The position numbers and the translations under genes were made by a program. The notes below the pieces were generated by a model that saw only the letters and a program-made list of their open reading frames with translations, had not been told where the DNA came from and did no database searches. Shown here piece by piece: positions 8,382 through 42,915 of a stretch of DNA of 46,234 bases (position 1 is the first letter of the stretch; each line of letters starts with the position of its first letter). Origin of the DNA: Betaproteobacteria bacterium (GTDB taxonomy: Bacteria; Pseudomonadota; Gammaproteobacteria; Burkholderiales; SG8-39); assembly GCA_031389685.1 (NCBI GenBank), contig JANMSV010000112.1, positions 1-46,234 on the forward strand, given 5' to 3'.

Positions 8382-8939
8382 ATGACCGCCGAGCGTCGAA
8401 GGCACGCTGGTGATAGCGCCCAGCGACCTCAACCTCACGTTCAAGCGCTACGCGGAGTCCCCGTGGGCCAGATCTATTGCTGCACGGAAACGGCACCGAT
8501 CGCCATCGTCCTCCTCAAAGAGGATGCCGCCACCCGGGTCTGCAGCGCGGGCAAGCCCGCGATGCACTGCGAGGTCAAGATCGTGGCCGGCGAGATCTGG
8601 GTGCGCGGACCGAACGTCATGCGACGTTACTGGAATGATCTGGCAGCGACCGCGGCGGTGCTGGACACGGAAGGGTGGCTCCGCACTGGCGATCTCGCGC
8701 GGCTGGACGAGGACGTCTACTACTGGATGCTCGCCCTGTTCAGGGACCGGCTGGCGCGCTACAAGCATCCGCGCCGCGTCGTGTTCGCCGACGGGTTGCC
8801 CAAGAACGCCCTGGGCAGGGTACAGAAGCACGAGCTGAAGAAGCTGCTCCAGCAGTTCAGGTCACGCGCAACTCGACCGCCCCAAGCGCGCCCGCCTCGA
8901 AACGCAGGACATCGCCCTGCCGCGGAAACTTCGAGGTGA
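8382..8939 (+). pseudogene. Degraded acyl-CoA synthetase / AMP-binding enzyme fragment
   Basis: Only C-terminal motifs remain (GQIYCCTET, GEIWVRGPNVMRRYW, GWLRTGDLA, ARYKHPR, LPKNALGRVQK); the N-terminal domain and the hinge/GGENIYP segment are missing; conserved Gly and Lys residues are substituted. Confidence 0.75.
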
Positions 8940-9663
8940 CGAGGCTCCCGCAGATCACGATGTCGCCCTTGCGCAGGCCCCGCGCGCGCGCCGCAAGGTG
9001 GTTTGCGACCCAGGCAAGCGCCGCGAACGGATGGCCCATGCTGTCGGCGCCGCGCCCCTCCCCGGCCACCGCGCCGTTGATCGTGGCCACGCCGTGCAGC
9101 GCGGCAAGATCGACGCGGTGCCAGGCGGCCACGGGCTCACCGAGCACCGCGCCCTCGTTCCAGGCGTTGTCGGCGGCAAGCTCGAAACCGCGCGCGGGCA
9201 AGGAACCGTAGTCGGCGTCTCGGTCATCGGCAAGTTCGAAAGCCGGCATGAGCGCGCCCACTGCGGCGGCCACTTGCTGCGGCGCGTACGGAGCGCCTTC
9301 GGGCGGCAGGTCGGCATCCATGCGTGCCCCGATCTCGAACTCGACCAGGAGCCGGCCATAGTCCGCCGCCCGCACCGAAGCCGGGCCGCGCACGACCTGG
9401 CGCGCATGCAGGCGTCCGGCGATCGGTTCGTTCAGGCCGACCAGCGCGCGCATCTGCGGCGTCGTCAGGGCGATCTTGTGGCCCGCCACAGCGCCGCAAG
9501 CGCTCGCCTTGAGCGCGACGAACGCGTCCTGGATGGCATAGGCCTCCTCGATCCCGCGCGGCGCCATCGACGCCGGCATCGGGCGCGAGCGTGCCCTGCC
9601 CAGATGCTGGCGCACCAGCCACCGGGCTGCCCTGACGATACGAAAGTCACCGGCAGCGTGCAT
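8857..9663 (-). CDS. Fumarylacetoacetate-hydrolase family protein (2-keto-4-pentenoate hydratase-like)
   Basis: AYAIQ, GHKIALT, VEFEIG, ADNA, MGHPFAALAWVAN, GDIVICGS. Confidence 0.85.
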   Translation of the reverse strand: MHAAGDFRIVRAARWLVRQHLGRARSRPMPASMAPRGIEEAYAIQDAFVALKASACGAVAGHKIALTTPQMRALVGLNEPIAGRLHARQVVRGPASVRAADYGRLLVEFEIGARMDADLPPEGAPYAPQQVAAAVGALMPAFELADDRDADYGSLPARGFELAADNAWNEGAVLGEPVAAWHRVDLAALHGVATINGAVAGEGRGADSMGHPFAALAWVANHLAARARGLRKGDIVICGSLVTSKFPRQGDVLRFEAGALGAVELRVT

Positions 9664-9730
9664 GATGCGATTCTAGCGGTTGCCCTCTGCGGCGGCTTTG
9701 CCGACAATACAGCCTGGGGAAAGTCCACTC

Positions 9731-10105
9731 ATGCCTCTCACTCACCGTTCCTACGACAGCGCCCTGGTGCTCGCGCCCACCGGCCGGCTCGACCACGACA
9801 ATTGCGAGAGTTTCCGGGAGGAACTGGCGCCGCACCTGGCGCGCTCGGCCAAGGAAAGCACCGCCATCGTGCTCGACCTGTCCGGCCTGGAATACGTGTC
9901 GAGTGCCGGCCTGCGCTGCTTCATGCTCGCGGCGAAGCAGGCCAAGGCGCAGAACAGCCGCATCGTCATCGCGTCGATGCAACCGGTGGTGGCCGAGATC
10001 TTTCAGATCGCCCGCTTCAACCTGGTGTTCGAAGCCTACCCCAAGGTGCGCGACGCGCTCGCGGCGCTCTCCCCAAGCGCCGCCGCCGCGTTCGACCGGG
10101 GATAG
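9731..10105 (+). CDS. STAS-domain anti-anti-sigma factor (RsbV/SpoIIAA-like)
   Basis: GRLD, VLDLSGLEYVSSAGLR carrying the phospho-acceptor Ser motif, VAEIFQIARF. Confidence 0.9.
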   Translation: MPLTHRSYDSALVLAPTGRLDHDNCESFREELAPHLARSAKESTAIVLDLSGLEYVSSAGLRCFMLAAKQAKAQNSRIVIASMQPVVAEIFQIARFNLVFEAYPKVRDALAALSPSAAAAFDRG

Positions 10106-10110
10106 CGCGC

Positions 10111-11067
10111 GTGCGCGTCCGCTTCTGGGGCACGCGCGGCTCGATTCCGGTCGCCATAACTTCCGCTGACATCCGCGACAAGATTGCCCTCGCGCTGGTG
10201 CGTGCCGATGGCCGGCGTTTCGCGGACGTCGGCGAAGCGCATGCATTCGCGCTGGAGCATCTCGATTTCGCCCTGTCGCACACGTTTGGCGGGCATTCCG
10301 CCTGCGTCGAACTCGAGACCGGCAGGGACGAATACTTCGTGTGCGACCTGGGTAGCGGCGCGAGACCTCTGGGCGCTCATGTGCTCGCCCGGCAGTCGGG
10401 CCGGCCGGCGGTCGTGAACGTGTTCATGTCGCACGTGCACTGGGACCACATCATGGGGTTCCCGTTTTTCGGCCCCGCCTACGTCGCCGGCACCCGCATC
10501 CGCATTCACGGCTGCCATGACGTACTGGAGCAGGCGTTTCGCCTTCAGCAGGCACCGCCCTGCTTTCCGGTCGAGTTCTCGCAACTGGCCGCCGACATCG
10601 AATTCGTGAAACTGGCGCCGGGCCAGGCGTACGAGATCTCCGGAATCATGGTCACCCCCGCGCCGCAGATGCACTCCGGCGATTCGTACGGCTACCGTTT
10701 CGAGGCGCAGGGCAAATCCGTGGTCTACACCACGGATTCGGAGCACAAGCTGGAGAACCGCGCGCAGACCGAGCGCTTCGTGCGCTTTTTTCACGGCGCC
10801 GACCTGGTCGTGTTCGATGCCATGTACTCGCTGGCCGACGCCATCTCGGTGAAGGCGGACTGGGGCCATTCCAGCAACATCATCGGCGTCGAGCTGTGCC
10901 AGATGGCGCAGGTCAAGCACCTGGTCCTGTTCCATCACGAGCCCGCCTACGACGATGCGACGATCGAAGGCGTCCTGAACGAGACGCGGCGCTTCGAGGA
11001 ACTTACGCGCGGCACGCTTCCGCTGCAGGTCTCTGCGGCCTACGACGGGCTGGAGATCGAAGTCTGA
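10111..11067 (+). CDS. MBL-fold metallo-hydrolase (RNase Z/PhnP-like subgroup)
   Basis: RFWGTRGS N-terminus, HVHWDH metal motif, YTTDSE, WGHSS, LFHHEP; GTG at 10111. Confidence 0.9.
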   Translation: MRVRFWGTRGSIPVAITSADIRDKIALALVRADGRRFADVGEAHAFALEHLDFALSHTFGGHSACVELETGRDEYFVCDLGSGARPLGAHVLARQSGRPAVVNVFMSHVHWDHIMGFPFFGPAYVAGTRIRIHGCHDVLEQAFRLQQAPPCFPVEFSQLAADIEFVKLAPGQAYEISGIMVTPAPQMHSGDSYGYRFEAQGKSVVYTTDSEHKLENRAQTERFVRFFHGADLVVFDAMYSLADAISVKADWGHSSNIIGVELCQMAQVKHLVLFHHEPAYDDATIEGVLNETRRFEELTRGTLPLQVSAAYDGLEIEV

Positions 11068-13187
11068 AGTCCGCCTGGTCCAAGCGGGCGGGCCCGCTGG
11101 CACTGGTCATTGCCCTGCTGCTCCTGCTCGCCACCGAGCCGCCGTTCGTGCACGGACTGCGCCACGCGCTGTTCGACGGCTACCAAAGACTTTTTCCGCG
11201 CCCGCGCCTCGGCGCACCTGCCGTGATCGTGGCGATCGATGAACCCGCGCTGGCTCGTTACGGGCAGTGGCCCTGGCCGCGCACCCGCATCGCGCAATTG
11301 CTGGCCAAGATCGCCAACGCCGGGCCCGCGGCCATCGGCCTCGACTTGCTGCTCCCGGAGCCCGACCGCTTCTCGCCGGGTGAGGTGGCCAAGGAAGTAA
11401 AGGAATTGTCGGTCGACGTGGCGCGGCGCCTGCGTGCCCTGCCTTCCAACGACGCGGCGCTGGCCGCGGCCATCCAGGGGCGCAAGGTGGTCCTCGGCAT
11501 TGCCGGGCTCGAGAAGCCCGATCCGCGATTTATGCGCCCTCCGGCTGCGCCTCCCATTCTGATCGCCAACGCGGCCGATCTGGCGTTGCGCCGCTTCGCC
11601 GGTCATTTGCAAAGCCTGCCGATCATCGATCGCGCCGCGGCCGGCCGCGGTCTGCTCAGCGTGGACTCCGAGAGCGGCGTGATCCGACGCGCGCTCGTCG
11701 CCGGACGCATTGGCGACGTTATCGTGCCGGCGCTGAGCGTCGAGATGTGGCGCGTGGCCAACGACGCGCCGCTCGCCCTGGTCGGCCGCGAGCGTGACCA
11801 GATCGAATTGCAACTGGGCGACATCGCAATACCGGCGCACGCGGACGGTAGATTCTGGATCCGGTTCGGGCCGCATGATCCGGCGCGTTTCGTCTCCGCA
11901 GCCCGGGTGCTGGATGGGAGCATCGCGTCGGAGCAATTCGAACGCAAGCTGGTGCTGATCGGGGTCACCGGGCTCGGGCTGCTTGACTATCAGAACACCG
12001 CGCTCGGCGAACGGATGCCGGGGGTCGAAATCCACGCGCAGATCCTGGAGCAGATCTTCGATCACGCCTATTTGCGCCGGCCTGCCATCCTGCGCTCGTT
12101 GGAACTCGGGTTGCTCGCAGCGGCGGCGCTGATGCTCGCGTTCGCCGTACCTGCCCTGGGAGTGGGATCCTCGATCGCCCTCTACGCCGCCGTTATCGCC
12201 GCGCTTGCCGCGCTCGGCCTTGCGGGTTTCCTGCAGGAAGGATTGCTGCTGGACGTCGCATGGCCCGGCATCGGCGCAACCGCGGTATTCGGCATTGTGC
12301 TTGCCAAAGCATTGAGCGAATCCGACGAGCAGCGCCGCCGATTGCGTGAGCAGGCGGCGCGCGTCAGCGGTGAACTGGAGTCTGCGCGACGCATCCAGAT
12401 GGGATTGCTTCCCGCTCCCCGCATGATGTTCGCGCACGAGCGGCGCTTCGAAATCGATACGTTTCTTGAGCCTGCGCGCACGGTCGGAGGGGATTTCTAC
12501 GACTGCTTCATGCTCGACTCGCACCGTTTGTTCTTCATCGTCGCCGACGTATCCGGCAAGGGCCTGCCGGCGAGCCTGTTCATGGCGCTTTCAAAGACCC
12601 TGCTGAAGAGCGCGGCGCGTCGCGTAGACAACGTCGGCGGCCTCATGGTGCGCGCCAATGCCGAGGTCTCGAGCGAGAATCCGGAATCCCTGTTCATCAC
12701 CGCGTTCGCCGGGATTCTGGACGCCCGCACCGGCATGCTCGAGTTCTGCAATGCGGGCCACGAACCGCCGTTCGCGCGGCGCCCGGGCGGCGCCCTGGAA
12801 CGGCTCGAGCATTCCGGCGGGCCGCCGCTGTGCGTGATTGAGAATTTTGCATATCCGGTGGAGTACCGCGGCGTTGCCGCGGGCGAATGGATCTGCGTGG
12901 TGACCGACGGCGTGACCGAGGCGATGAACGAATCCGGCGAGCTCTACGGTGCCGCGCGCCTGCAAAGAGTGCTCGCCGGCCTGCCCGAGTCGGTGGCGCC
13001 GCCCGAACTGCTCGCGGCAGTGCGTGCCGACGTGGGGCGTTTCGTCGGCACGGCGGAGCCCTCCGATGACTTGACGCTGCTTTGCCTGCGCTGGATCGGC
13101 GCGGCGCCGGCTGACGACCCGCTAGCGCACGCTGATCTCGACGCGCCGGTTGCGGGGCTCGGGGACGCCGTCCGCGGTCGGCACTAA
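11064..13187 (+). CDS. CHASE2 sensor + three TM helices + PP2C/SpoIIE (RsbU-like) Ser/Thr phosphatase
   Basis: CHASE2 motifs IVAIDE..L..YGQWPWPR, PEPDR, PGVEIHAQ; PP2C motifs VGGDFYD, ADVSGKG, NAGH, TDGVTEA, DDLTLL; CTG start at 11064 inferred. Confidence 0.88.
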   Translation: MKSAWSKRAGPLALVIALLLLLATEPPFVHGLRHALFDGYQRLFPRPRLGAPAVIVAIDEPALARYGQWPWPRTRIAQLLAKIANAGPAAIGLDLLLPEPDRFSPGEVAKEVKELSVDVARRLRALPSNDAALAAAIQGRKVVLGIAGLEKPDPRFMRPPAAPPILIANAADLALRRFAGHLQSLPIIDRAAAGRGLLSVDSESGVIRRALVAGRIGDVIVPALSVEMWRVANDAPLALVGRERDQIELQLGDIAIPAHADGRFWIRFGPHDPARFVSAARVLDGSIASEQFERKLVLIGVTGLGLLDYQNTALGERMPGVEIHAQILEQIFDHAYLRRPAILRSLELGLLAAAALMLAFAVPALGVGSSIALYAAVIAALAALGLAGFLQEGLLLDVAWPGIGATAVFGIVLAKALSESDEQRRRLREQAARVSGELESARRIQMGLLPAPRMMFAHERRFEIDTFLEPARTVGGDFYDCFMLDSHRLFFIVADVSGKGLPASLFMALSKTLLKSAARRVDNVGGLMVRANAEVSSENPESLFITAFAGILDARTGMLEFCNAGHEPPFARRPGGALERLEHSGGPPLCVIENFAYPVEYRGVAAGEWICVVTDGVTEAMNESGELYGAARLQRVLAGLPESVAPPELLAAVRADVGRFVGTAEPSDDLTLLCLRWIGAAPADDPLAHADLDAPVAGLGDAVRGRH

Positions 13188-13718
13188 CGGTTCGCGTTCA
13201 CCGCGGCCCGCGGTCTGGATATGGGCCGGCGGTATGCCTAGCCGCACCAGCTCCTCCCGCACACGGTTCGCGCGCTGCAGGGAAAGCCGGTCGTTGTACT
13301 CGTCGCTGGCCAGTCGGTCGGTGTGCCCGATGGCCAGGACATCCGGCGAATTGCTCTCGCGCAACTCTGCCAGGACCCTGGCCAACTCGACCTTCGATTC
13401 CGGCGTGAACTCGTCACTGTCTTCGAGGAAGTACAGCAGGAACGACTTCGGACGACCGGGTAGCGCAGTGAGGACCGCACGGAATTCCTGCCGCACGGCG
13501 CCTTCGTCGAAGCTTTGCGCGCGCGGCGCGCTACCACCCACGATTCGGCTCGCCGCATACGCTTGGTTGAGAATTGCTTGCTCGCCCCGGCGTTCGACCA
13601 CCACCATCCCTACGTGGCCATCCGCCGATGGCAATACCACCACCAGTTCGTCGCCGATCTGTTGCGGACCAAAAAAGACCATGAGCGCCCCGGCGAGCGC
13701 GACGATCACGGCCCCCAT
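13122..13718 (-). CDS. OmpA-like (peptidoglycan-binding) domain protein
   Basis: GHTD, N..LS..RA..V, GRGEREP, NRRVEI; hydrophobic N-terminus. Confidence 0.9.
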   Translation of the reverse strand: MGAVIVALAGALMVFFGPQQIGDELVVVLPSADGHVGMVVVERRGEQAILNQAYAASRIVGGSAPRAQSFDEGAVRQEFRAVLTALPGRPKSFLLYFLEDSDEFTPESKVELARVLAELRESNSPDVLAIGHTDRLASDEYNDRLSLQRANRVREELVRLGIPPAHIQTAGRGEREPLVPTADGVPEPRNRRVEISVR

Positions 13719-13719
13719 T

Positions 13720-14169
13720 TCACTTTACTGGTTCGTCCACCTGCACAACGAACTCGGTGCCGCGCACGCCCATGATCGCCGCCGGCGTACGCACGCGCAT
13801 GGCGTCCGGGGACTGCTTGACCATCTTGCCGGAAACCACCGCCAGCGTGCCCTTCTTCAGCGACGCGTCGAAATGGCCGGCGTGCGTGGTGCTGTTGAAG
13901 CTGTAACGATCTACCACCAGCACGCTGTTCGGTCCCGTGGACAGCCGGCTGTTGTCGCTGAATGTCACCCCGGCCGAACCATCGGCCCCGGTAACCAGGA
14001 CGTCGGACTGGCGGATGCCCATGCCCACTGTGGCCGGCAGGTGCTTGCCTTCGCGCTCGACATGAACGCTACCCTTGGCAACCTTGACCTGGCCGACCTC
14101 GTCGGCGCGGGCTAGGCCCGTGGACGCTAACACAAGGACCGCAACCGCAACTGCTACCCTATGGCGCAT
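13720..14169 (-). CDS. Secreted stand-alone FecR-domain protein
   Basis: Signal peptide ending ARA; TGADGSAGVTFSDNS, LKKG, VRTPAAIMGVRGTEF; AGGAGG RBS at 14174-14179. Confidence 0.85.
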   Translation of the reverse strand: MRHRVAVAVAVLVLASTGLARADEVGQVKVAKGSVHVEREGKHLPATVGMGIRQSDVLVTGADGSAGVTFSDNSRLSTGPNSVLVVDRYSFNSTTHAGHFDASLKKGTLAVVSGKMVKQSPDAMRVRTPAAIMGVRGTEFVVQVDEPVK

Positions 14170-14193
14170 ACGTCCTCCTGCAGAATGAAACGG

Positions 14194-14203
14194 ATTCTAT
14201 AAT
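14194..14203. promoter_or_regulatory. Overlapping divergent -10 elements (TAGAAT minus, TATAAT plus) between fecR-like and rsbW-like genes
   Basis: ATTCTATAAT in the 58-bp divergent gap. Confidence 0.45.
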
Positions 14204-14227
14204 GCCCGCGACGAATCAGGTAATCGC

Positions 14228-14647
14228 GTGAAAAACCCCCGAGTCGCACAGTTTCTTGCACGGCTGGACCAATTGCGGCCCATGCAGGCATTCCTCGAGG
14301 CCTTCTGCGCCGACTCGGGCATGCCTCGGGCGGCATGCCTGCGCCTGAACCTGGTGCTGGAGGAATTGTTCACCAATACGGTAAAACACGGCCACCGCGG
14401 CGACTGCGATGCACCAGTTTGGGTAGCGCTGTCGCGTACCGACGACAGCGTGCTGGTGGTCTATGAGGACAAGGCGCCCCCGTTCAATCCCTACGCACAT
14501 CTGCGCGACGATTCTCCCGATGTCACGCTTGAATTGCGCAAGGTCGGCGGGCTTGGCGTGCTGCTGACGAAGGAATTGGCGGCATCCCGCGATTATGCCT
14601 ACCTGTTCGGACGCAATCGGATCCGCCTGACACTCGTTCCGGCCTAG
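14228..14647 (+). CDS. RsbW/SpoIIAB-like anti-sigma factor Ser/Thr kinase (HATPase_c_2)
   Basis: LVLEELFTNTVKHG, YEDKAPPFNP, GGLGV, GRNRIRL; GTG start. Confidence 0.88.
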   Translation: MKNPRVAQFLARLDQLRPMQAFLEAFCADSGMPRAACLRLNLVLEELFTNTVKHGHRGDCDAPVWVALSRTDDSVLVVYEDKAPPFNPYAHLRDDSPDVTLELRKVGGLGVLLTKELAASRDYAYLFGRNRIRLTLVPA

Positions 14648-14650
14648 GCC

Positions 14651-14737
14651 TGGTACCCGGGGCCGGAGTCGAACCGGCATGGCCTTTCGGCCGAGGGATT
14701 TTAAGTCCCTTGCGTCTACCAGTTTCGCCACCCGGGC
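14651..14737 (-). tRNA. tRNA-Leu(TAA)
   Basis: 87 nt GCCCGGGTGGCGAAACTGGTAGACGC...CTTAAAA...long variable arm...GGTTCGACTCC...ACCA. Confidence 0.97.
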
Positions 14738-14757
14738 AGCAACGCGTCAAGGAAATT

Positions 14758-14831
14758 TGGAGGCGGGAGTCGGAATCGAACCGGCGTCCACGGCTTTGCA
14801 GGCCGCTGCATGACCACTCTGCCATCCCGCC
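14758..14831 (-). tRNA. tRNA-Cys(GCA)
   Basis: 74 nt GGCGGGATGGCAGAGTGG...CTGCAAA...GGTTCGATTCC...TCCA. Confidence 0.97.
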
Positions 14832-25640: not shown

Positions 25641-27059
25641 TTAGCCCTTGTCCGCCAGGCCGGTGACCGTGACGAAGGCCGTATTTTCGCCGCGACGCAC
25701 CTGCAGCGTGATCACCGCGTTCTTGTCCATGCCCGCCAGCAGCTTGTTGAACTGCTCCGTGGACTTCAGTTCCGTGTGCTGGCCGTTGTGCACCACCTTG
25801 AGGATCACGTCGCCGCGGCGCACGTCGGCGCGCGCGTCGGGACGCACGTCCGACACCACCACCCCGTGCCCCAGCTTCATCTCGCGCTTTTGCTCGGCCG
25901 TCAATTCGCTCACCACCAGCCCTAGCCGGTTGGCGGCGAGTTCTGCGGGCTTGCGCTCGCGCGGCGCATCGCGTGCCGCGACCCGCTCCTCCTGCAGCTC
26001 GCCGACCGTCAGCGTGAGGGTGCGGGACGCCGCCTTGCGCCACACCTCCACCTGCACGCTGGCGCCCGGACGCGTGGCACCGACGATGCGTGGCAAGTCG
26101 CTGGAAGAGTCGACGGGCTTGCCGTCGAAGCGGGTGATGATGTCGGTCGCCTCGATACCGCCCCGGTCCGCCGGGCTGCCCTTCTCCACCGAGTTCACCA
26201 GGGCACCGCGCGGACGATCGATGCCGAAGGACAGGGCCAGGTCCTTCGTCACCTCCTGGATCACCACGCCGATGCGACCGCGCGACACGCGGCCCTTGTC
26301 GCGCAATTGCCTCTGGATATCGAGGGCCACGTCGATCGGAATCGCGAACGACAGGCCCATGAAGCCCCCGGTGCGGCTGTAAATCTGCGAATTGACGCCG
26401 ACCACTTCGCCCTTCATGTTGAACAGCGGGCCGCCGGAATTGCCCGGGTTGATGGCCACGTCGGTCTGGATGAAGGGCACGAAGTTCTCCTGCGGCAGCG
26501 AGCGTCCCTTGGCGCTGACGATTCCGGCGGTCACGGTATTCTCGAAGCCGAACGGCGAGCCGATCGCCACCACCCACTCGCCCACCTTGAGCTTTGCGGG
26601 GTCGCCCAGGCGCACGGCGGGCAAGTTCGACGCGTCGATCTTGATCAGCGCGACGTCGGTACGCTTGTCCGCACCGATGACCTTGGCCTTGTACTCGCGC
26701 TTGTCGGTGAGCTTGACGTTGATTTCGTCGGCGGCGTCAATCACGTGCGCATTGGTGAGGATGTAGCCGTCCGCGCTGATGATGAAGCCGGACCCGAGGG
26801 ACCGGCTTTCCGGGCGCGCGCCGGGCCCGGGCTGGCGCGGGATGAAGCGGCGGAAGAATTCCAGCATCTCCTCGTCTTCGATGTTCGGCACCTGCGGCAC
26901 GTTGGCGCGGCGCGGCGCCTGCGTGGTGCTGATGTTGACGACTGCCGTCCCTTGCTCCTCAACCAGGCGGGTGAAGTCGGGAAGTTCGCGTCCCTGGGCC
27001 GCGGCGAGGGCCGCGCAGGTGGCGAGCAGCAGCGCGACGGCCAATCTGTACAAATGCAT
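25641..27059 (-). CDS. DegP/MucD-type periplasmic serine protease with two PDZ domains
   Basis: Signal peptide; LTNAHV, DVAL, GNSGGPL triad; two PDZ domains; in the rpoE operon. Confidence 0.95.
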   Translation of the reverse strand: MHLYRLAVALLLATCAALAAAQGRELPDFTRLVEEQGTAVVNISTTQAPRRANVPQVPNIEDEEMLEFFRRFIPRQPGPGARPESRSLGSGFIISADGYILTNAHVIDAADEINVKLTDKREYKAKVIGADKRTDVALIKIDASNLPAVRLGDPAKLKVGEWVVAIGSPFGFENTVTAGIVSAKGRSLPQENFVPFIQTDVAINPGNSGGPLFNMKGEVVGVNSQIYSRTGGFMGLSFAIPIDVALDIQRQLRDKGRVSRGRIGVVIQEVTKDLALSFGIDRPRGALVNSVEKGSPADRGGIEATDIITRFDGKPVDSSSDLPRIVGATRPGASVQVEVWRKAASRTLTLTVGELQEERVAARDAPRERKPAELAANRLGLVVSELTAEQKREMKLGHGVVVSDVRPDARADVRRGDVILKVVHNGQHTELKSTEQFNKLLAGMDKNAVITLQVRRGENTAFVTVTGLADKG

Positions 27060-27114
27060 TTTGCATCCTCTCGGAAAGTAACGTGCCCGGCATTCCCCCG
27101 GGCAGCTCAGGAAA

Positions 27115-28074
27115 TTATTGCGGGCGGTGGTATTCCACCGTATCGCCGATGCGTTGCACGCTTGCCGCGGGCGTCTCGCCCACCACGGTCACCAGGTGAT
27201 CTGCAACTTCGCGCGTGTAGACGTTGACCGCACCCATGCTGGCGAGCCCGAGGCGCGCGGTCTCGGTGCGGCCGGCAATCGGCTCGATGAACACCGACAC
27301 GGCCGCCAGTCCGTCGGAATACACCACCTGACCTACCGGCTGGGTGTCACTCAGCATGCGCCGAATCTCGACGATCTTGCGGAACCCCGGCAGGTGCGGA
27401 GATACTTTCCAGCCCGAGCGCGCCAGGTCGGCAGGCGCGACCCCGGCCTGCTCCACGCGCCAGTTGCGCGCGGCGCGCAGCGGCCGCAGCCGTTCGCGCG
27501 GGACGCTGCCGATTTCCAGTTGCGTGAAGGTGAATTGCTCCACCGTCTGGCCATTGGCGTCGAACGCGCGGGCCTTCAACAGCATACCAGTGCGCAGGTC
27601 GGCCCACAGCTGGTAGCCGTAGCGCAGATTGTCCCTGGGCGCCAGTACCAGCACCTGGCAGTCGTAACCGGCGATGCGCTGCACGTCGTGCTTGGTGATC
27701 GAGTAATGCTCGGCCAGGGCGTTCACCTGCTCGGGCAGCAGCGCAGGAAAATCGCGCTGATTCCTGCGCCGGTCGACCTTTACGATCTGGCGCTCCGGCA
27801 GGTAGCAGCGGATCTCGTCGCGCGTACGCAGGATCTCGCGCGGCGGGCCGTCGAGCACTTCCAGTTTTTCCACGCCGCCGTCGGCATCGGCCAGGCGCGA
27901 AATGCGCGACGTCTCCGTGCGCCCCGCCTGCTGGTACACGAAAATTCCGGTGTAAGACAGTTTTTCCGTCGCCTGGTGGATCTTGCGCAGCCAATCCAGC
28001 GCCTCCGGCGCCGCCTGCGCCTGCGCCAGCCCCGCGGCCACACACAGCAGCACGGCGCCGATGGCGCGCGTCAT
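27115..28074 (-). CDS. rseB: Sigma-E regulatory protein RseB/MucB
   Basis: LSYTGIFVYQ, LDGPPRE, PRDNLRYGY, YSDGLAAVSVFIEP, TVVGETP. Confidence 0.93.
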   Translation of the reverse strand: MTRAIGAVLLCVAAGLAQAQAAPEALDWLRKIHQATEKLSYTGIFVYQQAGRTETSRISRLADADGGVEKLEVLDGPPREILRTRDEIRCYLPERQIVKVDRRRNQRDFPALLPEQVNALAEHYSITKHDVQRIAGYDCQVLVLAPRDNLRYGYQLWADLRTGMLLKARAFDANGQTVEQFTFTQLEIGSVPRERLRPLRAARNWRVEQAGVAPADLARSGWKVSPHLPGFRKIVEIRRMLSDTQPVGQVVYSDGLAAVSVFIEPIAGRTETARLGLASMGAVNVYTREVADHLVTVVGETPAASVQRIGDTVEYHRPQ

Positions 28075-28607
28075 GGCTTCCTCGCTGCTGCGTCGTCGGA
28101 CACCGAGCGCACGTAAGGCGCCAAGCCGAGCAGCGAATTTCGGGACGAGAACGCCTGATGGGCAAGCAGGTAATCGCGGCTCGCAGTGGTCAGCGGCACG
28201 CTGGCCGGCGCTTTGGCAGCTTCGATCGTCGGCGCAGCCGGTGCCTGGGCGAGCGGCGTCGGCCCGGGGCCCGCCCCTTGCTGGGGCGCGAACGCCAACC
28301 AGCCGACCAGCGCAACTGCCGCGACGCCCGCGGCGAGCGCGGAGGGGACGAACCAAGGTGCGCGCTCCGGCGGGCGCACCGCGGAAGGATGCGGCGCCAC
28401 CAGAATGGGCTCCTGCGCCAGGCGTGCCACCACCCGGTGCAGGCAATCCGCCGACAGCAGGGCGCGACCCTGCAACGCATCGCTGATCAAATGATAGGTG
28501 CGCCAGGATTCGCGCGCGCCCTCGTCGTCGCGTAGCGCGGCAAGGGGCTCGTGCAGCTCATGCGCATCGAGCTCGCCGTCCATCAGTGCCGATATCTGCG
28601 ATTTCAT
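28071..28607 (-). CDS. rseA: Anti-sigma-E factor RseA/MucA
   Basis: ISALMDGE, WRTYHLISDAL, single TM helix, YLLAHQ. Confidence 0.92.
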   Translation of the reverse strand: MKSQISALMDGELDAHELHEPLAALRDDEGARESWRTYHLISDALQGRALLSADCLHRVVARLAQEPILVAPHPSAVRPPERAPWFVPSALAAGVAAVALVGWLAFAPQQGAGPGPTPLAQAPAAPTIEAAKAPASVPLTTASRDYLLAHQAFSSRNSLLGLAPYVRSVSDDAAARKP

Positions 28608-28611
28608 CTTG

Positions 28612-29211
28612 CTACCACCTCCGGTCCTTGCCCGTGTCGAGCAGCGGTCGCAGCCGTTCCGCAATCGCCTCGCGCGCCCTGAAAATGCGCGAGCGCACGG
28701 TGCCGATGGGGCAGTCCATGATGCGCGCGATGTCTTCGTAGCTCATGCCTTCGATCTCGCGCAACTGGATCGCCGTACGCAATTCCTCGGGCAGCTCGTC
28801 GATCGTCGCGTTCACAGTCTGCGCAATCTCCTTGGACAGCAACATGCTTTCCGGCGTGTTGATGTCGCGCAATTGCTCGCCTTCCTCGAAACCCTCGGCG
28901 TCCTCCGCCTCCACTTCGGTGGAGGTCGGCGCCCGCCGCCTCAGCGCCATCAGGTAATTCTTGGCGGTGTTGATGCCTATCCGGTACAGCCACGTATAGA
29001 ACGCGCTATCGCCGCGAAACGCCGGGAGCGCCCGGTACGCCTTGATGAACGCCTCCTGCGTCACGTCTTCCACCTCGGCCGGGTCGCGGATGAATCGCGC
29101 CAACAACCGCCCCAGCTTGCGCTGGTATTTCTCCACCAGCAGCTCGAACGCGCGCTTGTCGCCGCGCTGTGCGCGCTCTACCAGCTGGCGATCAATGTCG
29201 CGCTCAGACAA
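28612..29211 (-). CDS. rpoE: ECF sigma factor RpoE/AlgU
   Basis: DRQLVERAQRGD..AFELLV.KYQ, FRGDSAFYTWLYRI, CPIGTVRSRIFRAR; TTG start. Confidence 0.96.
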   Translation of the reverse strand: MSERDIDRQLVERAQRGDKRAFELLVEKYQRKLGRLLARFIRDPAEVEDVTQEAFIKAYRALPAFRGDSAFYTWLYRIGINTAKNYLMALRRRAPTSTEVEAEDAEGFEEGEQLRDINTPESMLLSKEIAQTVNATIDELPEELRTAIQLREIEGMSYEDIARIMDCPIGTVRSRIFRAREAIAERLRPLLDTGKDRRW

Positions 29212-29274
29212 CTGCCCGCCCGCCTGGCCCGCGCAGCATACCCGCGCCGGACCGCACTGCAATGCCTATGAGGC

Positions 29275-40194: not shown

Positions 40195-42915
40195 GTGAAA
40201 CGCATGTTGTTTAACGCGACCCAGCAGGAAGAGCTGCGAGTCGCCATAGTAGAAGGCCAGAAGCTGGTTGACCTCGACATCGAATCCGCATCCAGGGAGC
40301 AACGCAAGAGCAACATCTACAAAGGCATTATCACCCGCGTCGAGCCCAGCCTCGAGGCCGCCTTCGTCGATTACGGCGAGGAACGGCACGGGTTCCTGCC
40401 TTTCAAGGAGGTCGACAAGATCTTTTTCAAGCCCGGCGTGGACGTCGGCCGGGCGCGCATCCAGGATGCGCTTACCGAGGGCCAGGACCTGATCGTTCAG
40501 GTCGAGAAGGACGAGCGCGGCACCAAAGGCGCGGCCCTCACCACCTATATCAGCCTCGCGGGACGGTACCTCGTCCTGATGCCGAACAATCCTCGGGGCG
40601 GCGGCGTATCGCGTCGTATCGAGGGCGAGGACCGCAACGAGCTGCGCGACACCCTGGACAGCCTGCAGCTTCCCGAGGGCATGAGCGTGATCGCGCGCAC
40701 CGCGGCGATTGGCCGTGCGCCCGAGGAACTTCAGTGGGACCTCAACTACCTGCTGCAGCTGTGGAGCGCGGTGGATGGCGCTGGCAAGACCCAGGACAGG
40801 AAGCCGTTCCTGATCTACCTCGAATCCAGCCTGGTGATCCGCGCCATTCGCGACTATTTTCAGCCCGACATCGGCGAGATCCTGATCGACACCGAGGAAA
40901 TCTACGAGCAGGCGCTCGCCTTCATGCAGACCGTGATGCCGGCCAACGTCGGCAAGGTCAAGCTGTACCGCGACGACGTGCCCCTGTTCTCGCGCTTCCA
41001 GATCGAACACCAGATCGAGAGCGCGTACTCGCGCCACGTGAGCCTGCCTTCGGGCGGCGCGATCGTGATCGACCATACCGAGGCGCTGGTGGCGGTGGAC
41101 GTCAACTCGGCGCGCGCGACCAAGGGCAGCGACATCGAGGAAACCGCGACGCGCACCAACCTCGAGGCGGCGGACGAAGTCGCCCGGCAGTTGCGCCTGC
41201 GCGACCTGGGCGGCCTGATCGTGGTCGACTTCATCGACATGGAATCGCTGAAGAACCAGCGCGAGGTGGAGAACCGGTTCCGCGATGCGCTGCGCTATGA
41301 CCGCGCACGCGTGCAGGTCAGCAAGATTTCGCGCTTCGGGCTGCTGGAGCTGTCGCGCCAGCGGCTGCAGGCCTCGCTGGAGGAGACCGCGCACATCAGC
41401 TGCCCGCGTTGCAGCGGCACCGGGTTCATCCGCGGCACCGAGTCCACCGCGCTGCACGTGCTGCGCATCCTGCAGGAAGAAGCCATGAAGGAGAACACCG
41501 GCGCGGTGCATGTGCAGGTGCCGGTCGACGTGGCGAGCTTCCTGCTCAACGAGAAGCGCGCCGAGATCCAGAAGCTCGAAGCGCGCCTCAAGGTCAACAT
41601 CATCCTGGTGCCGAACCCGCACCTGGAGACGCCGCACTACAAGATCCAGCGCCTGCGCCATGACGAACTCAACGCCATGGAACACGTGCCGGCAAGCTAC
41701 GAGATGGTCGAGCAGCCGGAGGAACCCAAGCCGGAAGACGCAGCCGGCGAAGCCAAGAAGGAGCGGCCCGAAGCCGCGGTGAAAGGCATCGTGCCCGATC
41801 AGCCGGCACCCAACGTGCCCGAGCGGCTGCCGCAGGCGGCGTCTCAGGCATCCGCGCGCGCAGCGCCCCGCCCCGCTGCGGCGCGGCCGGAGGCTGCGTC
41901 CCGGTCAGGCTTCATGGGCCGGATTCTCGGCTGGTTCAAGGCGGACAAGCAGGAAGCCCCAGTGGCGCGTGCGGCCGCCGACACCGCGCGTCCGGCGCGC
42001 GAGCCGCGACGCGACTATCAGTCCCGCGAGCGCCGACCTGATCAGCGCCATGGCGGTGGCGAACGCCGCGACCATCGGCGCGAGCGTCCCCGGGATGAGC
42101 ACCGTGGCGAGCAGCGCCGCCCGCAGCAAGGCGGCGAGCGGCGACCCGATCAGCGCCACGGCGGACAGCCACAGCGCGACGGGCGCCCTCAAGGTGGCGA
42201 GCGCCGCCCGGACCAGCAGCGCCCGCAGCACCAGCAGCGACCGCCCCAGCAGCAACAGGCCCAGCAGCAACAGCCCCAGCAGCAACAGCCGCAGCAGGGA
42301 CCGCGACCTGCAGGCGATCCGGTCCAAGCCGGGGAGCGCGAAGGTGGCGAACAGCGCCGCGGCCGGCGCGGCCGCCAGCGCGAGCGGCGGCCAGACCAGT
42401 CGCGCGATCCGCTTGCCCCGTCGTCGGGCAACGAGAACGGACGCGCGGAGCAGCCTATCCAGGACGCCCAGACCCCCGCTTACCATGCCAGGGAGCCGGA
42501 CGAAAGGGAGCTGCGCGCAATGGAGCGGCAGATGCATGAGGCGCAGGTGCGCGAAGAGGCCCGTGCTCGCGAAGAAACGGTGCATCAGGTGCCTGTGCGC
42601 GAGGAACCCGCACACCGAGAACCGCTTAGAACGGAGCCGGTGCAGCAACAGCCTGCGCGAGTAGAGCCGGTGCACCACGAACCCGTACGCGCCGAGCCGA
42701 CGCCCCAGTCCCGGGCGCCATTGGAACCTCAGCAGCCGCGCGTTAACACCCGCGATTTGCTGGAGAGCGCCGGTCTGCAAATGGTCGAAACGCGACCCGA
42801 CCGATCGCAAGCGCCGGCCACCGAGCCCGAAGCGGTGCCGCTCGGCCGGCCGCGCCGCGAGCGTGCGCGTCCGTCTGCCGAGGAGAAGCTGGAGCAAATC
42901 GAAACCAAGGAGTAG
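40195..42915 (+). CDS. rne: Ribonuclease E
   Basis: [17 protein letters not shown]1 domain, DVNS, DFIDM, CPRCSG Zn-link, amphipathic [11 protein letters not shown], disordered C-terminal half. Confidence 0.98.

Follow-up and report, generated by a model that had tools for sequence, protein, structure and literature searches.

What does a bacterial partner switch control when no sigma factor is encoded in it or beside it? This question is raised by six genes at positions 9731..14647 of a 46,234-nucleotide (nt) stretch of DNA from an uncultured Betaproteobacteria bacterium of soil or sediment (contig JANMSV010000112.1 of assembly GCA_031389685.1, forward strand), hereafter called the window. 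They encode a STAS protein, a metallo-beta-lactamase-fold (MBL) hydrolase, a CHASE2-SpoIIE/PP2C membrane phosphatase, an OmpA-like protein, a FecR-domain protein and an RsbW/SpoIIAB-type kinase. An earlier note, made from the sequence alone, had described them as a candidate partner-switching system, and the open reading frame (ORF) coordinates and Pfam matches agree with the six genes it listed. In the reading that we favour and consider probable, the cassette is a sigma-less partner switch. The FecR, OmpA-like and CHASE2 components would provide the input, the PP2C phosphatase and the kinase would set the state of STAS Ser58, and STAS would regulate the MBL protein, a putative phosphodiesterase.

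The six genes are conserved together, as a unit. When the phosphatase and an MBL alignment were used as queries, 157 loci were fetched, corresponding to 136 distinct places, of which 98 were long enough on both sides to be testable. All six genes were present in the same order and orientation in 90 of these 98 loci (tblastn, E-value (E) 1e-4 or better), and the co-occurrence of all six families expected from the earlier note was therefore observed. Among the exceptions, one locus lacked an OmpA match (L133) and three lacked a kinase match (L148, L152 and L157), one retained the first three genes only (L063) and another the phosphatase, OmpA and FecR genes only (L056). In two others (L143 and L144), the MBL gene was found beside convergent small genes, which are STAS and HATPase_c_2 genes by Pfam in L143 and ORFs of matching size only in L144. 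As L056 and L143 belong to a single assembly, the cassette is able to divide into two trios, one of sensor genes and one of enzyme, switch and kinase genes.

As judged by median identity to the window proteins over 101 distinct complete loci, MBL is the best conserved of the six (73%, versus 52-65% for the others: FecR 65%, STAS 60%, kinase 54%, OmpA-like protein 52% and phosphatase 52%). The record titles of these loci are mostly Burkholderiales, Betaproteobacteria and Usitatibacter; some titles of metagenome-assembled genomes (Enterobacteriaceae, Streptomycetaceae, Lysobacter) look like bin mislabels. All six genes are also found in a complete genome from a cultured carrier, 'Betaproteobacteria bacterium GR16-43' (L047). 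With a fused form of the enzyme (P0123) as query, 79 further loci were obtained under titles including Alphaproteobacteria (Stellaceae, Kordiimonadales, Minwuia), Binatus, Rokubacteria/Methylomirabilia, Gammaproteobacteria, Polyangia and others. The six families occurred in cassette order in 44 of these 79, as detected with custom hidden Markov models (HMMs) and with short loci included in the total. One further arrangement was noted in a locus titled Eremiobacteraeota (L334), where PP2C, STAS, MBL and kinase are all on one strand and the custom HMMs gave no CHASE2, OmpA or FecR match. This locus may represent a version of the cassette that receives another input.

The STAS, kinase and PP2C proteins hold the residues needed for a kinase/phosphatase/STAS switch, apart from the G1 glycines of the kinase (see below). 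The motifs reported earlier as intact are conserved throughout the alignments (50 STAS, 95 phosphatase and 111 kinase sequences). In STAS, Ser58 of the YVSSAG motif is invariant (50/50), and HMMER places it opposite the leading Ser of D-S-S-G in SpoIIAA (1TH8 chain B), presumably the phosphorylated residue. The protein scores above cut-off for TIGR00377, the NCBIfam model of the anti-sigma factor antagonist superfamily (68.7 bits versus 53.45), and the STAS profile matches SpoIIAA structures with E 3e-13. In the CHASE2-PP2C alignment, the motifs GGDFYD, DVSGKG, NAGH, TDG and SDD are conserved. In the kinase, both the N-box (EELFTN..HG) and the G2 box (GGLG) are maintained; its score for the RsbW equivalog NF003144 is 15 bits for a cut-off of 145. 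Elsewhere in the host genome, two contigs carry related genes: two STAS matches and one HATPase_c_2 match at 38043-39082 of contig C174, at the contig end, and three HATPase_c_2 matches and one SpoIIE match at 13-1765 of contig C50, at the contig start. These may be a stressosome-like second partner-switch set divided by the assembly.

The partner of this switch is suggested by natural fusions. In 16 of the 79 loci described above, a single frame free of stops runs through STAS and MBL within the cassette, and for two of these loci (L261 and L301) Pfam confirms a fused STAS-MBL protein followed by a CHASE2-SpoIIE gene. Fusions were also found by a profile search with MBL in 1.84 billion representatives, which retrieved 7684 sequences with an E of at most 1e-3, 1357 of them at 1e-30 or lower. 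Of the 150 top-ranking MBL relatives, 46 exceed 400 amino acids (aa), and all 46 were scanned with Pfam. A STAS domain was present in 40 of these long forms, in three architectures: STAS-MBL (~450 aa), MBL-STAS (about 445-465 aa) and MBL-STAS-Pkinase, the last often continued by AAA_16 and TPR domains (700-1640 aa). A Hanks-type kinase was present in 35 of the 46, and HATPase_c_2, the domain of RsbW-type kinases, in none. The remaining long forms are P0159, with CHASE2, P0141, with an unassigned N-terminus, and four kinase fusions for which no STAS match was obtained at E 1e-5 or better. In P0159 (612 aa), an MBL-family C-terminal part is joined to CHASE2; read-through of the overlapping MBL and phosphatase genes could explain it, as could an error of gene calling or assembly.

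A kinase fusion (P0153) used as query gave access to 80 distant MBL loci. STAS was fused or adjacent in 18 of them: Chloroflexota fusions, eight Leptospira loci in which STAS is encoded divergently, upstream of the MBL gene, and a single locus from Fimbriimonadaceae with the order RsbW-STAS-MBL. Fusion in both orders, together with fusion within the cassette, is the strongest evidence for a STAS protein that would act on MBL, and it is from fusions and synteny that we infer this output. The earlier suggestion of the MBL enzyme as a possible output thus gains comparative support, both from the cassette loci and from the long forms.

What kind of enzyme would be regulated? The HxHxDH hydrolase signature pointed out earlier is present, as S107-H-V-H-W-D-H113, and is invariant in 50 of 50 sequences, as are the metal ligands H108, H110, D112, H113, H188, D209, H253 and H275. 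It fits the [T/S]HxHxDH motif of the 'atypical class-II phosphodiesterases', a name given, in the part of PMC9293780 available to us, to Rv1339, YhfI and Corynebacterium glutamicum CpdA (PF12706). Structure predictions were obtained for the window protein and for a relative, P0129, which is a natural MBL-STAS fusion and is modelled as two domains (predicted local distance difference test (pLDDT) 88.7; predicted template modelling score (pTM) 0.86, a hint only, as the fold came without an inter-domain error map). For both models, the top Foldseek matches were 1ZKP and YhfI (6KNS), with E from 1e-12 to 8e-15; template modelling scores normalised to these targets were 0.62-0.68 for the window model and 0.75-0.82 for P0129. 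RNase Z, PhnP, PqqB, yeast PDE1 and Apyc1 came next. Both models share a family-specific helix pair (residues about 18-50) in an insert behind the first strand (residues 12-60). From sequence and model, MBL is predicted to be a binuclear-metal phosphodiesterase of the ElaC/YhfI/RNase Z/PhnP clade.

Other searches were less specific. A search of the Protein Data Bank with the single MBL sequence returned RNase Z and PhnP only, weakly. The relatives listed by a homologue search were all close (78-92% identity) and are named 'MBL fold metallo-hydrolase' or, by JGI, 'phosphoribosyl 1,2-cyclic phosphodiesterase', names that are uninformative on function. PF23023 is annotated for some MBL relatives in precomputed hits and in the Atlas, which is a lead only, and Pfam gave no PF23023 match for the window protein at E up to 10. 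As for the substrate, Rv1339 hydrolyses cAMP and cGMP according to the same part of PMC9293780, and YhfI prefers cAMP and cGMP according to the accessible part of PMC9117128. The host genome assembly (3.05 Mb, 276 contigs, 95.7% completeness) contains eight class III cyclase-domain matches and 17 cNMP-binding matches. The signature, the YhfI fold match and these cyclases and cNMP-binding domains therefore make a cyclic mononucleotide such as cAMP or cGMP a plausible substrate, which we propose tentatively.

On the input side, the phosphatase is composed, as judged by a hydropathy scan, of a first transmembrane segment, a periplasmic CHASE2 domain, approximately three further transmembrane segments, a helical linker and a cytoplasmic SpoIIE/PP2C domain, with hydrophobic segments at about 6-32 and 340-414. 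Its start is uncertain, no canonical start codon being found near the conserved N-terminus. Among the 29 junctions compared, the codon across the MBL stop reads CTG in the window and in 20 relatives, GTG in five and CTA in two; in two further junctions of the 29, a CTG lies 11 nt beyond the MBL stop. The pattern is suggestive of translational coupling through a rare start codon; alternatively, the true start may have been overlooked. The FecR protein is small and probably exported, with a signal-peptide-like N-terminus (hydrophobic residues 4-23, followed by A-R-A and D-E). Its gene lies beside that of the CHASE2 receptor; the pair is kept in 90 of the 98 loci, and it remains linked in L056, where the switch genes are located elsewhere. 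Such a FecR-CHASE2 linkage is recurrent and has already been published, as seen in parts of PMC5192318 and PMC9239204. In PMC12143880, in the portion at hand, it is argued that PPM phosphatases, kinases and cyclases can swap sensor domains by way of helical linkers, which fits the occurrence of CHASE2 with phosphatase, kinase and cyclase outputs. The host genome itself carries a 739-aa protein with CHASE2 and a class III nucleotide cyclase (contig C91; L256:1252-3471, minus strand).

The OmpA-like protein has an N-terminal hydrophobic segment (1-22). Its first 40 residues contain neither Cys nor lipobox, and the protein scores below cut-off for every NCBIfam lipoprotein model, including the YfiB model NF053585 (64.5 bits versus 128). 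Since an N-terminal Cys and lipobox are lacking, it is, as far as its sequence tells, no lipoprotein of the YfiB/Pal type. A lipobox-like motif is present in 20 of 117 relatives, with crude start calls. In the YfiBNR system of Pseudomonas and Escherichia coli, signalling from envelope to cytoplasm involves an OmpA-like protein that binds peptidoglycan, and the earlier note had drawn on this system for the role of the OmpA-like protein. This analogy proved weak. The likeness is one of theme only, as the cassette has no lipobox and no relatives of YfiR or YfiN; a YfiB-type titration was rejected as a model for the OmpA-like protein on the lack of a lipobox.

Taken together, these results suggest the following scheme. 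The secreted FecR protein and the peptidoglycan-binding OmpA-like protein would act in the periplasm on CHASE2, and the signal would pass from CHASE2 through the membrane helices and the helical linker to the PP2C domain. The RsbW-like kinase would phosphorylate STAS Ser58 and PP2C would remove the phosphate, a chemistry for which the residues are present. STAS in one of its phospho-states, the unphosphorylated one if analogy is a guide, may then bind the neighbouring MBL enzyme and alter its activity, and no sigma factor would be released. A more specific version, which we hold as a possibility and well below the general scheme, is that envelope or peptidoglycan status would be transmitted through STAS phosphorylation to switch a cAMP/cGMP phosphodiesterase on or off. 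The CHASE2 partner switch would then gate cyclic-nucleotide breakdown and the CHASE2-cyclase of the same genome would gate synthesis. STAS would be a portable regulatory subunit of MBL phosphodiesterases, free here and fused in Alphaproteobacteria and Chloroflexota.

Several observations weigh against this scheme. The binding of STAS to MBL is proposed from fusions and synteny. In 62 of the 80 distant MBL loci, STAS is neither fused nor adjacent. Because the custom HMMs had missed STAS in some distant loci, 121 ORFs flanking MBL in these 62 loci were checked with Pfam, with 0 STAS matches; the MBL family therefore does not need STAS as such. Among the fused proteins, the position equivalent to Ser58 is Ser or Thr in 18 of 39, nine have such a residue only one position earlier and 12 have neither. 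Phospho-control is therefore not universal in the fusions. In the kinase, the G1 region (EDKAPPFNP) keeps its Asp invariant and has the usual glycines replaced. Moreover, the kinase gene forms a transcription unit separate from the other five genes, and no tblastn match to it was obtained in the three of 98 testable loci mentioned above. The signal, and the roles given to the FecR and OmpA-like proteins, are drawn solely from the gene neighbourhood. Regarding the enzyme, the model of the window protein is of moderate quality (pLDDT 73.6). Profile comparison ranks RNase Z (2CBN, E 2e-6) above 1ZKP (E 3e-5) and YhfI (E 1e-3); on this evidence, RNA and nucleotide substrates are equally open. The protein is also far below cut-off for the models of RNase Z (TIGR02651, 63.1 bits versus 292.95, E 2.1e-17; NF000801, 57.8 versus 252), of cyclic-nucleotide-degrading phosphodiesterases (NF041851, 50.4 versus 400) and of PhnP (35 versus 272).

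The neighbours of MBL in the 62 loci without STAS are varied and include HDOD proteins, GAF histidine kinases, sigma-54 response regulators, PilZ, GAF-cyclase and FHA proteins and a FecR protein. We noted among them second-messenger genes, namely a GAF-cyclase (L225), PilZ (L227, L234) and HDOD (L179, L180, L246).

These data can be read in other ways. The wiring could be the same with MBL as an RNA phosphodiesterase of the RNase Z/ElaC type, the output being regulated RNA cleavage. The best matches at the sequence level are indeed to RNase Z (TIGR02651 and 2CBN, above), and Foldseek also gives RNase Z and ELAC1; on the other side, the RNase Z score is far under its cut-off and the best folds are the short YhfI/BA1088 forms, YhfI being reported on cAMP and cGMP in the accessible part of PMC9117128. 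We regard an RNA substrate as a minority view, behind the cyclic-nucleotide one. The switch might instead follow anti-sigma logic with the enzyme in the place of the sigma factor, so that the RsbW-like protein would inhibit MBL and unphosphorylated STAS would capture the kinase and free the enzyme. This is the canonical topology of RsbW/SpoIIAB partner switches. The kinase gene is part of 90 of the 98 cassettes and also stands beside STAS and MBL in the split locus L143. It is the long MBL forms that make this wiring unlikely: they carry STAS in 40 cases and HATPase_c_2 in 0 of 46, and in the large fusions a Hanks kinase replaces the RsbW-type one. Judging from these fusions, the enzyme would be contacted by STAS and not by the kinase.

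An equally low probability is given to a switch whose target (for instance a sigma factor, a diguanylate cyclase or a transporter) is encoded at another locus, with MBL as a passenger or an upstream element, for example a signal degrader. STAS switches that act on unlinked targets are known, as with HsbA and BtrV. The host genome also offers candidates, with eight sigma70_r2 matches (seven above the Pfam cut-off) and further STAS, HATPase_c_2 and SpoIIE genes. Nevertheless, a passenger is hard to reconcile with STAS-MBL fusion in both orders and within the cassette. RpoE, the nearest sigma factor, has its own RseA/RseB encoded next to it and was ruled out as the target on this ground. Finally, the six genes could be neighbours by descent only and share no function. 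Most loci come from related uncultured Burkholderiales, in which synteny could be inherited. However, gene order persists among proteins of 42-60% identity and across titles of several phyla, the flanking genes vary between loci and fusions occur; this last explanation is close to refuted by the fusions and we consider it highly improbable. The reading that we retain is that of a switch acting through STAS on the MBL enzyme.

How does this cassette compare with characterised systems? It shares three protein families and the phospho-serine position with the Bacillus switches RsbU/RsbP-RsbV-RsbW-sigmaB and SpoIIE-SpoIIAA-SpoIIAB-sigmaF. It differs from them in having no sigma factor in or near it, in the periplasmic CHASE2 input of its phosphatase and in its conserved, sometimes fused partner, which is an MBL-fold enzyme. 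A closer parallel is SiaABCD of Pseudomonas aeruginosa. According to the parts of PMC7647112 and PMC8457831 available to us, the phosphate on a switch protein is controlled there by a membrane-bound PP2C phosphatase together with a small kinase. When unphosphorylated, the switch protein binds and activates the cyclase SiaD, so that the output is an enzyme instead of a sigma factor. In the same sources, this output is a diguanylate cyclase and the switch residue is Thr68 of SiaC, whereas in the cassette the output would be a hydrolase, the input CHASE2 with FecR and OmpA-like proteins, and the residue STAS Ser58. The cassette is not a SiaABCD member, since its phosphatase scores 28.2 bits with the SiaA model NF038263 (cut-off 700), and it contains no GGDEF gene.

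For the input, two published clusters are informative, each in the part of its report at our disposal. In Burkholderia (the 'BiofilmReg' operon) and in P. aeruginosa, a LysM-FecR protein is combined with a CHASE2 histidine kinase (PMC5192318). In a Campylobacterota cluster, a CHASE2 adenylate cyclase is accompanied by a cAMP phosphodiesterase and by FecR and TPR proteins (PMC9239204). As in the cassette, an exported FecR protein stands beside a CHASE2 receptor, with a peptidoglycan-binding domain in the first case and a phosphodiesterase in the second. In these systems CHASE2 ends in a histidine kinase or a cyclase, whereas here it ends in a PP2C domain that would feed a STAS switch; and the peptidoglycan-binding domain is here OmpA-like and on a separate protein, unlike the LysM-FecR protein of BiofilmReg.

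For the output, MBL resembles Rv1339, YhfI, CpdA and phage Apyc1 in its PF12706 fold and [T/S]HxHxDH signature, with YhfI 6KNS as best fold match; compared with these enzymes, it has the extra helical insert, and its sequence relation to YhfI is the weak one given above. No STAS control of Rv1339, YhfI, CpdA or Apyc1 is reported in the accessible parts of PMC9293780 and PMC9117128. The giant MBL-STAS-Ser/Thr kinase-AAA_16-TPR proteins of Chloroflexota and others join the same MBL subfamily to STAS and a kinase, and suggest the same enzyme-switch-kinase logic in one polypeptide. Their kinase is Hanks-type and not RsbW-type, and no CHASE2, FecR or OmpA-like parts were seen in them. In the literature searched, to which supplements could add, we found no description of CHASE2 with a partner switch or of STAS with an MBL enzyme, and none of CHASE2 and FecR with a PP2C or STAS output, in line with the earlier statement that the combination was not known to be characterised. 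A review of STAS proteins (PMC8256260) does not mention lactamase, hydrolase or phosphodiesterase, and PMC1262709 contains nothing bearing on the cassette.

The layout of the locus is given in Table 1. Gene positions are those of the ORF listing and domains were assigned by a Pfam scan of the translations.

Table 1. Features of the six-gene cassette, in coordinates of the window
Feature	Coordinates	Strand	Evidence
STAS protein, 124 aa	9731-10105	+	Pfam PF01740, E 5.1e-18
MBL-fold hydrolase, 318 aa, GTG start	10111-11067	+	Lactamase_B_2, E 7.4e-18
CHASE2-SpoIIE/PP2C membrane phosphatase, ~707 aa	about 11064-13187	+	CHASE2, E 1.8e-51; SpoIIE, E 7e-44
OmpA_C-like protein, 198 aa	13122-13718	-	OmpA family, E 5.8e-18, residues 96-191
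FecR-domain protein, 149 aa	13720-14169	-	Pfam FecR, E 7.6e-13
Spacer between divergent FecR and kinase genes, 58 nt	14170-14227	.	ORF coordinates
RsbW/SpoIIAB-type kinase, 139 aa, GTG start	14228-14647	+	HATPase_c_2, E 1.2e-18

The cluster had been described as tightly packed. This is correct for the distances between genes: 5 nt separate the STAS stop from the MBL start, the MBL stop codon overlaps the first codon of the phosphatase (CTGA) and 1 nt separates the FecR stop from the OmpA-like start. The genes do not, however, form one co-directional operon. They are arranged in three transcription units, STAS>MBL>CHASE2-PP2C on the plus strand, FecR>OmpA-like on the minus strand and the kinase on the plus strand. 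The second is convergent with CHASE2-PP2C, the 3' ends of the ORFs overlapping by 66 nt (13122-13187). A similar overlap of ~60 nt is seen in relatives, for instance L002, and conservation of the phosphatase tail falls past about residue 680. The kinase gene is divergent from the FecR gene, and the spacer between them is presumed to be a shared regulatory region, a role proposed from position. A scan of 9500-14800 gave 0 promoter-like sites and no sigma-70 consensus, and was uninformative; the two terminator-like sites found in the same interval are both within the kinase gene and are fewer than in shuffled sequences.

Upstream of the cassette lie mltG/tmk/holB, a Zn-ribbon protein gene and a gene of the FAA-hydrolase family. 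Between the last two, a short ORF (8382-8939, plus strand) resembles the C-terminus of an acyl-CoA/AMP-binding enzyme and may be a gene remnant. Downstream, three tRNA genes on the minus strand, of which tRNA-Leu starts at 14651, are followed by pgsA and uvrC. No sigma factor, cyclase or transcription factor gene was found within several kilobases (kb) of the cassette, as had been claimed earlier for the cluster and its borders, and none of the 98 testable loci has a sigma gene in its conserved neighbourhood. The nearest one, rpoE (28612-29262, minus strand), is the sole sigma gene in the window and is located ~14 kb off, beyond housekeeping genes; its product scores 323 bits with TIGR02939, above the cut-off. 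It belongs to an ordinary envelope-stress set outside the cassette (25641-29262, minus strand), made up of RpoE, RseA-like and RseB-like proteins and a DegP/HtrA protease. Further away, at 40195-42915 (plus strand), a 906-aa ORF has a repetitive C-terminal half rich in Arg, Pro and Gln, tandem repeats of 15-30 nt at 42200-42326 and a strong AT skew. Its N-terminal sequence recalls, to our eye, that of RNase E.

Partner switches are best known from textbooks as regulators of sigma factors. Few are known to act on enzymes, SiaABCD being the clearest case; to these the cassette described here, which is widespread among uncultured bacteria of soil and sediment in several phyla, would add a switch with a hydrolase as output. 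It offers a defined system for asking what CHASE2 and its FecR companions sense and how a STAS domain can regulate an enzyme, and the natural STAS-MBL and MBL-STAS-kinase fusions are ready constructs for structural work. Were its substrate cAMP or cGMP, the enzyme would tie the state of the envelope, through the cassette, to second-messenger turnover.

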